Made by a program: the position numbers and the translations under genes. The notes beneath the pieces are model-generated. The model ran no database searches. It had not been told where the DNA came from and worked only from the letters and a program-made list of their open reading frames with translations. This document shows, in pieces, positions 25,747-26,584 of a DNA stretch of 40,559 nt; within the stretch, counting starts at the first letter, position 1; every line of letters begins with the position of its first letter. This DNA is from a virus (lineage: Duplodnaviria > Heunggongvirae > Uroviricota > Caudoviricetes): positions 1 through 40,559 of IMG/VR virus record IMGVR_UViG_2541047813_000005, one strand, 5' to 3'.

Positions 25747-25761
25747 TTACCTTAAAGGTAT
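25747..25761. promoter_or_regulatory. Operator-like dyad TTACC-TTAAA-GGTAT abutting the start codon of the cargo gene
   Basis: Ends 4 nt before ATG 25766; same arrangement as site 32167..32181. Confidence 0.45.
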
Positions 25762-25765
25762 AATC

Positions 25766-26584
25766 ATGAAAAACTTCAAGGTAATTAGCATGTTTGAATC
25801 GTTTAAAGAGCTGTTTTTATCTACTGCCAATACTGCCGTGAATCGAGCCAAAAACCCTGTGCTTGGTGCTTTTGTTATGTCCTGGTGCGCCTTCAACTGG
25901 AAATCAATTCTTTATCTATTTTTTAGCAAATCAAACATAATAGATAAAATTTCATATATCTCAGATAACAGCACATGGAAAACTGTTATGTTTTATCCAT
26001 GCTTATCTGTAATTGCTATCTGCTGCCTATTACCATGGGTAAACAATATCATTAACGTATGGCAAGCAAAGCCTCTTGATAATAATGACTCAATCGAAAA
26101 TCACCTGAAGGCAAGAAAAATCCAGCGTGAAACCAGACTGCAGAGGTTATTGGCTAAAAAAGATGTTACATACGACAAAGTTAAGACTGGCGCGGAAAAA
26201 GACATCCAAGAGATGAAAGAAGAGATTATTCGATCAAAGAATAGTATGGGGGAATTGACTGCCGAGTTGAAAGCTAAAGATGACGAATTGAGATCCGCCA
26301 GTGCTCAGTTAGCAGCTCTAAATCATTCATTAAAAGAGATATCGGAAACTCTGGGAAGAATGAATGAGGCATATAAGACCCTCCAAAATGATTTCGACGA
26401 ATACAAACTCAAATACCCTGAAAAATCTCAAATAAAAAGCCTTGCACTTGGCAACGGCCAAACAATTAGCAACTTTTTGGAGCAACACAACTTATCCGGA
26501 TTAAAATCTGGTAAGCCAAACGTTTTTAATAACTTTGGTGTTCTATCTGGATTATCAGGTTTCGATGATAAAAATAAAGACTAA
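25766..26584 (+). CDS. Cargo (moron) protein: N-terminal hydrophobic/membrane region plus long coiled coil; function unknown, candidate exclusion/abortive-infection factor
   Basis: ORF 25694..26584, probable start ATG 25766; AT-rich codon usage unlike flanking late genes; opposite strand; stop overlaps terL stop convergently. Confidence 0.5.
   Translation: MKNFKVISMFESFKELFLSTANTAVNRAKNPVLGAFVMSWCAFNWKSILYLFFSKSNIIDKISYISDNSTWKTVMFYPCLSVIAICCLLPWVNNIINVWQAKPLDNNDSIENHLKARKIQRETRLQRLLAKKDVTYDKVKTGAEKDIQEMKEEIIRSKNSMGELTAELKAKDDELRSASAQLAALNHSLKEISETLGRMNEAYKTLQNDFDEYKLKYPEKSQIKSLALGNGQTISNFLEQHNLSGLKSGKPNVFNNFGVLSGLSGFDDKNKD

Follow-up and report, generated by a model that had tools for sequence, protein, structure and literature searches.

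Start-Proximal Dyads of a Cargo Gene and a DUF1064 Gene in a Uetakevirus Are Probably Operators of the Prophage Repressor Rep Rather Than a Translational Switch

Introduction

Why should two unrelated genes of one phage be preceded by almost the same short cassette, placed directly against an ATG? The question arises in the window analyzed here, a stretch of viral DNA of 40,559 nucleotides. On its plus strand, positions 25747–25768 read TTACC TTAAA GGTAT AATC ATG, in front of an accessory gene referred to here as the cargo gene; on its minus strand, positions 32181..32161 read TTACC TTAGA GGTAA ATC ATG, in front of a DUF1064 gene of the replication region. The dyad ends 4 nt before an ATG in the first case and 3 nt before it in the second, and an AGG lies in its loop and right arm. 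An initial annotation, which described both sequences correctly, proposed that an RNA hairpin or a bound protein occludes ribosome binding at this AGG, and thus that the two genes share a translational or tightly coupled transcriptional control.

The window is an epsilon15/phiV10-like temperate podophage. It belongs to the genus Uetakevirus, with ~97% DNA identity to phiv142-3, phiV10, ZX5, and O157 typing phages, and its structural genes lie on the minus strand. This placement makes available the repressor-binding sites annotated in epsilon15, against which the two dyads can be read.

A Genome-Wide Set of Operator-Like Dyads

Allowing one mismatch at most, the window contains 13 copies of the dyad TTACC-N5-GGTAA where 0.63 are expected, and none of 100 shuffled sequences reached 13. 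All of the copies are intergenic or located at the 5' ends of genes, and the ACC..GGT core is invariant in 13/13. With this many copies, the dyad is not a feature particular to the cargo and DUF1064 genes. A site matrix, self-trained on these same sites, yields the consensus A-TTACC-T-n-w-n-A-GGTAA-T and separates 12 sites of ≥19 bits from a background of ≤11 bits, with two sites (34525 and 28649) of intermediate score. The 17-bp dyad ATTACC-N5-GGTAAT is exact at 32167 (23.4 bits) and at 32229 (26.5 bits), both upstream of the DUF1064 gene, while the cargo site at 25747 carries one mismatch (GGTAT) and, with 19.2 bits, is the lowest of the 12.

Identical 17-mers in the epsilon15 GenBank record (AY150271.2) carry the label "protein_bind, repressor, lysogeny." The labeled sites lie upstream of the small terminase (TerS), gp3, tailspike, and RuvC genes, as well as at O_L, left of the repressor gene. 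Every copy in phiV10 and epsilon15 is intergenic or falls within an upstream-extended TerS annotation, and the positions in these two phages and in SPC32H are orthologous to those in the window. In SPC32H, dyads of this type flank rep and precede DUF1064.

The candidate regulator is encoded by the Rep repressor gene of the window (34612..35196, plus strand), whose 194-aa product has two helix-turn-helix (HTH) domains, matched in Pfam by HTH_3 and a YdaS-like HTH. It is homologous over its full length to SPC32H Rep (PDB 5D50; E = 4e-42, residues 1–190). Rep is described as acting on palindromic sites in the form of a tetramer and as being dismantled by the antirepressor Ant (PMC9638917). In ZX5, a 97%-identical phage, overexpression of the orthologous repressor blocked the lytic cycle (PMC9782041).

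The remaining sites are distributed over early, late, and accessory units. Between a cro-like gene and rep, an O_R-type cluster (34494..34556) comprises operators at 34494, 34525 (weak), and 34542, the first of which is overlapped by a minus-strand promoter, TTGTTA-17-TATTAT. A P_L-type unit (35254..35331, plus strand) consists of a distal operator (35254–35268), a promoter TTGACA-17-AATTAT (35289–35317) that scored 10/12 in the promoter scan, and a proximal operator (35317–35331). Tandem operators 18 bp apart (28649..28681) lie directly 5' of the small terminase start and correspond to an annotated repressor-binding site of epsilon15 (12–27). The nearer one ends 2 nt 5' of ATG 28646, contains GGTGG, and is kept in ~90 relatives; at TerS, conservation in relatives supports the adjacent ATG as the start codon. 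Further single operators are found between the tailspike gene and an ant-like gene (8183..8197; orthologous to epsilon15 19895–19911, annotated as repressor-binding), upstream of the lysis cassette (5327..5341, one mismatch; orthologous sites at phiV10 24692 and epsilon15 24704), and just 3' of the terminator after the cro-like gene (34157..34171, one mismatch). On the plus strand, an operator at 25130–25144, orthologous to the annotated epsilon15 site 2931–2947, abuts a promoter-like TAGACA-18-AATTAT (together 25101..25144) with the geometry of P_L. The tRNA-Arg(TCT) gene (25467..25543, plus strand) lies 5' of the cargo gene, in one transcription unit with it.

Operators thus overlap the predicted promoters P_L and P_R and those of the tRNA unit and the cargo gene. 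The proposal of a control shared by the cargo and DUF1064 genes survives to the extent that a site of one regulator is present at both and that transcriptional control fits; a control specific to these two genes does not, given that the operator also occurs at P_L, P_R, and the terminase, head, tailspike, lysis, and tRNA/cargo units. On the basis of these comparisons, we consider it probable that the ~14 dyads are Rep operators at promoters, and that the two sites in question reflect ordinary repressor control of transcription and not a translational switch.

The DUF1064 Gene and Its Paired Operators

The DUF1064 gene (31819..32163, minus strand) encodes 114 aa and belongs to PHROGs family phrog_190, a Holliday-junction-resolvase family. 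Its product matches Pfam PF06356 (E = 3.7e-7), with residues 18–92 aligned to profile positions 19–102; since this match is in register with the N-terminus, ATG 32163 is well supported as the start codon. The proximal operator (32167..32181) contains the Shine-Dalgarno sequence GAGG and ends 3 nt before this ATG. At this gene, the initial annotation was therefore right about both the start codon and a Shine-Dalgarno sequence inside the dyad. A distal operator (32229..32243) lies 62 bp from the proximal one and is orthologous to epsilon15 35906–35922, annotated as repressor-binding. This second dyad, 62 bp upstream, is present in the window, epsilon15, phiV10, and SPC32H, and the pair corresponds to 35907/35969 in epsilon15, 35070/35132 in phiV10, and 35972/36034 in SPC32H. 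With a spacing of about six helical turns, the two operators would suit cooperative binding by tetrameric Rep.

Alignment of the upstream regions of P_L and DUF1064 reveals a common layout: a terminator T-run, the distal dyad, ~20 bp, CTATTGA (-35), a 17-bp spacer, the -10 element, and the proximal dyad. Both dyads are invariant in this alignment, as is the -35 CTATTGA in six sequences. The -10 element varies (AATTAT, TTTAAT, TTAAAT, and GATTAT), and the proximal dyad begins with its last T. The alignment thus points to a candidate minus-strand promoter for DUF1064 (32181..32209), formed by TTGATT (32209–32204), a 17-bp spacer, and TTTAAT (32186–32181), of which the final T is likewise the first T of the proximal dyad. 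The promoter scan did not call this TTTAAT promoter, whose -10 is without A at position 2. By analogy with P_L, transcription probably starts inside the proximal dyad, near 32174, which would give a leader of ~11–14 nt. Such a start would leave the left arm of the dyad untranscribed and would account for the tight packing of the Shine-Dalgarno sequence and the ATG at the operator.

The scan did report a second promoter-like site, TCAACA-16-TAAAAT (32250–32223, minus strand), with the distal operator contained in its spacer. If it is active, the entire proximal dyad would be part of the DUF1064 leader, and Rep would block this promoter too.

The Cargo Gene, Its Start Codon, and Its Slot

The cargo gene, from its probable start (25790..26584, plus strand), encodes 264 aa assigned to phrog_4780, with a hydrophobic N-terminal part and a coiled coil. 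Neither Pfam nor NCBIfam returned a match for the protein. Its PADLOC matches (DndD, LmuB, and JetC; E = 1e-5 to 0.1) all fall on the coiled-coil segment and were set aside as composition noise. More than 100 homologues are listed, many of them of 264 aa, and all 11 of those fetched from outside the window's 98%-identical cluster start with MLES or MIES at, or in register with, the second ATG of the reading frame, at 25790. A pattern scan of genome contigs for the cargo family gave no match; NCBI genomes do carry the family, and scans of viral contigs matched.

The in-frame ATG beside the dyad (25766..25768, plus strand) is probably not the main start codon. In the long open reading frame, the match to the phrog_4780 profile sets in only at residue 9, and orthologous upstream regions are without this ATG (CAGAAAAAAAC versus CATGAAAAAC in the window). 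It is confined to the window-type subclade, in which CATGAAAAAC stands where other contexts have CAGAAAAAAC, and it lies 3–5 nt upstream of the predicted transcription start. Thus, translation of the cargo gene probably begins mainly at 25790; at this gene, though not at DUF1064, the start codon would then lie elsewhere than supposed, a circumstance that the initial annotation had itself named as refuting its proposal. In the 8-codon extension that precedes 25790, two substitutions were seen, and since both are synonymous, ATG 25766 may still be used weakly on read-through transcripts.

The gene sits in an exchangeable slot. Its left edge is an intrinsic terminator (25707..25729, plus strand), GCCCGG TTCG CCGGGC followed by a T-run, with the hairpin at 25707–25722; the slot extends between this terminator and the end of the large terminase gene. 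Backbone homology stops at the terminator in 82 loci (81 relatives and the window), and several different inserts follow there. Most of these are without a dyad and start, immediately behind the T-run, with AAGGTGAGAT(T/C)ATG, whereas the 854-nt insert of the window type is found in 10/82 loci, the window included.

The Cargo Promoter and Its Dyad

A predicted sigma-70 promoter for the cargo gene (25736..25764, plus strand; 10/12 in the promoter scan) consists of ATGACC (-35), a 17-bp spacer, and TATAAT (-10, 25759–25764). The Rep-operator-like dyad TTACC-TTAAA-GGTAT (25747..25761), one mismatch from the consensus, lies in the spacer and overlaps the -10. Transcription is predicted to start near 25771, which is downstream of ATG 25766. 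The dyad is kept upstream of the cargo family in ~30 distinct contexts, and in most of these, a -35 of the form xTGACx and a -10 of the form TAnAAT are kept at equal spacing. The order of the module is a terminator (usually), (A/G)TGAC(C/T/G), a 17-bp spacer with (T)TACC-N5-GGTA, TAnAAT, CAGAAAAAAC, a Shine-Dalgarno sequence, and ATG. It is found in Uetakeviruses of E. coli and Salmonella and in other prophages of Klebsiella, Citrobacter, Leclercia, Enterobacter, and Cronobacter. The cargo gene and its dyad promoter are absent from epsilon15, phiV10, and SPC32H; in other Uetakeviruses, the site is kept with the gene.

One proposed origin for this promoter was discarded. In phiV10 and SPC32H, the region upstream of int has a 15-mer, TTACCTTAAAGGTAT, in common with the cargo promoter, which might therefore be a copy of that region. 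The two are not spaced alike relative to the TGAC element, however, the difference being 2 nt, and the int-upstream copy is part of a larger hairpin that carries the annotation of an RNase III/integrase site.

Whether the dyad is a working Rep operator here has to be weighed against its travels. In several prophages, it persists although neither a Rep homologue nor another dyad is present within 10 kb on either side. It may thus be a look-alike, a conserved part of the family's portable promoter that is either a relic or bound by some other factor widespread among enterobacterial prophages or hosts. Consistent with this, the dyad accompanies the gene into lambdoid-type prophages, where the 10 kb to each side contain neither a Rep homologue nor a further dyad, and it is intact at loci L186, L200, L207, L093, and L095. 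A large Uetakevirus subgroup has CTACC-ATAWC-GGTAT at this position, and the mismatch of the window site (GGTAT) is imposed by the -10. The full TTACC..GGTA is intact about equally often in distinct Rep-type contexts and in other prophage contexts (9/18 versus 5/12, not significant). The ACC..GGT core points the other way: it is intact in 18/18 Rep-type contexts versus 8/12 others, four being broken (Fisher p = 0.018, uncorrected for relatedness). Moreover, a chance match of 9–10 specified bases at that exact position is unlikely, and 19.2 bits is in the range of the weaker true operators, far from a background of ≤11 bits. The evidence is mixed: control of the cargo promoter by Rep appears moderately likely, though not secure, and we regard the look-alike reading as unlikely.

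RNA-Level Control and Start-Region Exchange

In its original form, the translational proposal holds that a 5–6 bp hairpin, or a protein bound to the dyad, hides the Shine-Dalgarno sequence and so controls the translation of both genes. The placement of a Shine-Dalgarno sequence within the dyad at DUF1064 and at TerS fits this idea, as would activity of the distal promoter-like site, by which the full proximal dyad would enter the DUF1064 leader. The predicted hairpins of the two dyads, however, are weak, at -3.3 kcal/mol (z = -1.49) and -4.2 kcal/mol (z = -0.09), and at neither is the hairpin more stable than in shuffled sequence. Folding of the 62-nt DUF1064 leader gave -11.2 kcal/mol (z = -1.2, not significant), and Rfam returned no family at either site, only the tRNA. 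In addition, both of the predicted transcription starts (near 25771 and 32174) would leave the left arm out of the transcript, and the ATG that adjoins the cargo dyad is not kept in relatives. Translational repression by a bound protein is likewise unsupported, the candidate regulator being an HTH protein that binds double-stranded DNA.

The pattern of variation points the same way. In ~60 relatives as well as in epsilon15, SPC32H, and phiV10, neither the proximal arms TTACC/GGTAA nor the ATC-ATG next to them vary, three single-base exceptions apart; two relatives have one-sided arm changes (GGGAA and GGTGA), and one of these also has ATT for ATC. No compensatory arm changes at the DUF1064 dyad were found among the ~60 relatives, and the arm sequence is equal at almost all genomic copies. 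The 5-nt center, conversely, varies even in close relatives (TCAGA, TTAGA, TCAGG, TAAGG, TGAGA, TCGTG, and others). Invariant arms around a variable center indicate base-specific recognition of DNA by a protein as the candidate constraint, and not an RNA stem. Taken together, these observations make RNA-level control through the dyad highly improbable.

Free variation of the center also means that the likeness of TTAGA (DUF1064) to TTAAA (cargo) is a coincidence. Beyond the arms, the identity of the two cassettes is marginal: AGGT-N2-5-ATCATG occurs in 2 copies where 0.36 would be expected, a count that was also reached by 6 of 100 shuffles. True homology of the start regions would offer another explanation, in which AGGT-N3-4-ATC-ATG-A is a recurrent recombination joint for gene swaps and the cargo copy stems from such an exchange. 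In epsilon15, the cassette precedes a RuvC gene in place of DUF1064 with the swap boundary exactly at the ATG, after a conserved GGTAAATC, and other inserts in the cargo slot start with AAGGTG(T/A)(G/A)AATCATGAAA. Set against this, the identical stretch is only ~8 nt long, the pattern count is marginal as given above, and the ancestral family sequence GGTAGAATCAGAAAAAAC is already similar, such that one or two base changes suffice. We therefore hold a common origin by exchange to be improbable.

A different RNA structure deserves separate consideration at the cargo gene. A 16-nt inverted repeat (25742..25789, plus strand; arms 25742–25757 and 25774–25789, 14/16 complementary) encloses the -10 as well as the predicted start of transcription and the first ATG. 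Its right arm contains the Shine-Dalgarno sequence of ATG 25790, and it ends 1 nt before that codon. As RNA, it folds with -13.0 kcal/mol (z = -2.2), and a variant, L187, reaches -14.9 kcal/mol (z = -3.3) through a C-to-T change that extends the pairing. On transcripts reading through from the tRNA unit, 25742–25757 could pair with 25774–25789 and hide the Shine-Dalgarno sequence of 25790; only transcripts from the cargo promoter, without the left arm, would then be translated. The near-complete complementarity abutting ATG 25790 and the stronger fold of L187 speak for such insulation. Yet the repeat is limited to the window-type subclade, without support from covariation; no significant structure is seen in other members of the family, and a further variant, L197, breaks a pair without compensation. 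Read-through may also be minor behind two upstream terminators, and the repeat could equally supply extra Rep half-sites on DNA. Insulation by this fold seems quite improbable.

Two composite readings are equally conjectural. The portable promoter of phrog_4780, with its Rep-type operator, might plug the gene into whatever immunity circuit is resident, while the subclade's repeat silences read-through translation; or, as the persistence of the dyad in prophages without Rep would suggest, an unrecognized common regulator of TTACC-N5-GGTA sites might exist. There is perhaps a small chance that one of these is right.

Proposed Regulation and Implications

The reading we prefer remains control of transcription by Rep. 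According to this model, nearly every transcription unit has an operator copy within its promoter or next to it, and the predicted action of Rep in the lysogen is a direct silencing of these units through a block of RNA polymerase. The cargo and DUF1064 sites would then be two different geometries of one operator set. At the cargo gene, transcription would proceed from near 25771 and translation from 25790, with ATG 25766 being a lineage-specific by-product off the transcript of the cargo promoter.

What looked like a translational cassette linking a cargo gene with a replication-region gene is thus probably the usual binding site of the prophage repressor, of a kind that the epsilon15 record already annotates. 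The proximal DUF1064/RuvC operator and the cargo-promoter site are unannotated in the records examined, and both are of a known kind. For annotation, two changes follow: the cargo gene probably starts at 25790 rather than 25766, and a proximal operator before DUF1064/RuvC, kept across the genus, can be added to the epsilon15 record, where it is missing. From the perspective of phage biology, the model predicts for the terminase-portal slot an accessory gene that stays silent during lysogeny and is expressed upon induction, unlike a classic lysogenic-conversion gene. The operator-bearing promoter of the cargo family, moreover, travels with the gene into unrelated prophages.

Comparison with Known Systems

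The closest counterpart is the Rep system of epsilon15 and SPC32H (epsilon15 record; PDB 5D50/5D4Z; Ant), with which the window shares the 17-bp dyad consensus, a two-HTH repressor, and orthologous sites before TerS, gp3, the tailspike gene, and RuvC/DUF1064 and at O_L and O_R. The systems differ in two respects. Only the distal site of the RuvC/DUF1064 pair is annotated in epsilon15, not the proximal one at the ATG, and the window has a cargo gene with a dyad-bearing promoter that epsilon15, phiV10, and SPC32H do not have.

Phage lambda offers a second parallel. CI at O_L and O_R is likewise an HTH repressor acting on dyads over the -35, -10, or +1, with paired sites that suit cooperativity, and divergent early promoters flank the immunity region. 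In lambda, however, operators are found only at P_L and P_R, and late genes are governed via N and Q antitermination, whereas the window also has operators before its packaging, head, tailspike, lysis, and accessory units.

Fold-back inhibition of the IS10 transposase, in which transcripts that come in from outside have their ribosome-binding site masked by long-range pairing, resembles only the insulation considered above for the cargo gene. The likeness is one of analogy, as the repeat in the window is conserved in one subclade only.

The "stoperators" bound by gp71 of mycobacteriophage L5 are asymmetric 13-mers that act on elongation in an orientation-dependent manner. The window resembles L5 in having many dispersed repressor sites in short intergenic gaps and in the genome-wide silencing predicted from them, a likeness that we do not take as membership in that class; its sites, unlike those of L5, are symmetric dyads that mostly overlap promoters. 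By the same analogy, two dyads that lie downstream of predicted starts, the proximal one at DUF1064 and the second one at TerS, could serve as roadblocks to transcription.

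Operator-associated genes and gene boundaries

A Rep-type operator (TTACC-N5-GGTAA, the predicted binding site of the prophage repressor Rep) directly precedes the DUF1064 gene. At the position that this gene occupies in the window, phiV10 and SPC32H, epsilon15 carries a RuvC gene, and the swap point is precisely the ATG that follows the conserved operator and ATC (window 32161-32166; epsilon15 locus L001, 35984-35989). Because the exchange falls exactly at the ATG, the arrangement can be described as one regulatory socket serving two unrelated putative junction resolvases.

Operators also adjoin other transcription units. 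In the tRNA-Arg(TCT) unit (25101-25543), a promoter-like site, TAGACA-18-AATTAT, abuts the operator at 25130-25144 upstream of the tRNA; therefore, Rep is predicted to control the tRNA and to restrict its synthesis to lytic growth. The small terminase start lies 2 nt past the second of two tandem operators in epsilon15, phiv142-3 and most gene calls (window 28646; L001 47), giving a product beginning MPAEPK, whereas in the phiV10 record the gene (locus L002, 41-715) begins upstream of both operators, a start that is probably over-extended. In the region 35217-35331, rep has the same orientation as the P_L-type operon: rep and its terminator come first, the distal operator follows directly after that terminator, and then come the promoter, the proximal operator and gp37-like genes.

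A second repeated motif in the window, CATATNTGGTTT, occurs in six copies at no more than one mismatch, including those at 8116-8127 on the plus strand and at 5283-5294, 8142-8153, 32186-32197 and 35297-35308 on the minus strand. A Rep-type dyad lies within about 50 bp of five of the six, the copy typically being 30-33 nt downstream of the dyad. Between the tailspike and ant-like genes, the 8116 copy pairs with the 8142 copy to make a palindrome, CATATCTGGTT-N16-AACCAGATATG. The motif could be part of a promoter, or a second regulator could bind there.

The cargo slot and its inverted repeat

The gap from the terminator to where the large terminase gene ends (25707-26584; relatives' loci L005-L084) is a gene-swap slot that holds several different inserts among 82 loci. 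Most inserts begin directly after the terminator T-run, as TTTTTTT-AAGGTGAGAT(T/C)ATG; those beginning at the T-run lack their own promoter and are preceded by two terminators. Restricted to the window-type subclade is a 16-nt inverted repeat (arms 25742-25757 and 25774-25789, complementary at 14 of 16 positions) that encloses the cargo -10, predicted transcription start and first ATG. The right arm supplies the Shine-Dalgarno region for the 25790 start, and as RNA the repeat (25742-25789) folds at -13 kcal/mol (z = -2.2).

Outside the window, relatives carry an exact copy of the cargo-dyad 15-mer, TTACCTTAAAGGTAT, upstream of their integrase gene (L002 26870-26884; SPC32H locus L004, 26960-26974), the epsilon15 form being TTACCCTAAAGGTAT (L001 26882-26896). 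This upstream 15-mer is enclosed in a larger hairpin, GACGGTAT...ATACCGTC, marked in the epsilon15 record as a site for RNase III and integrase.
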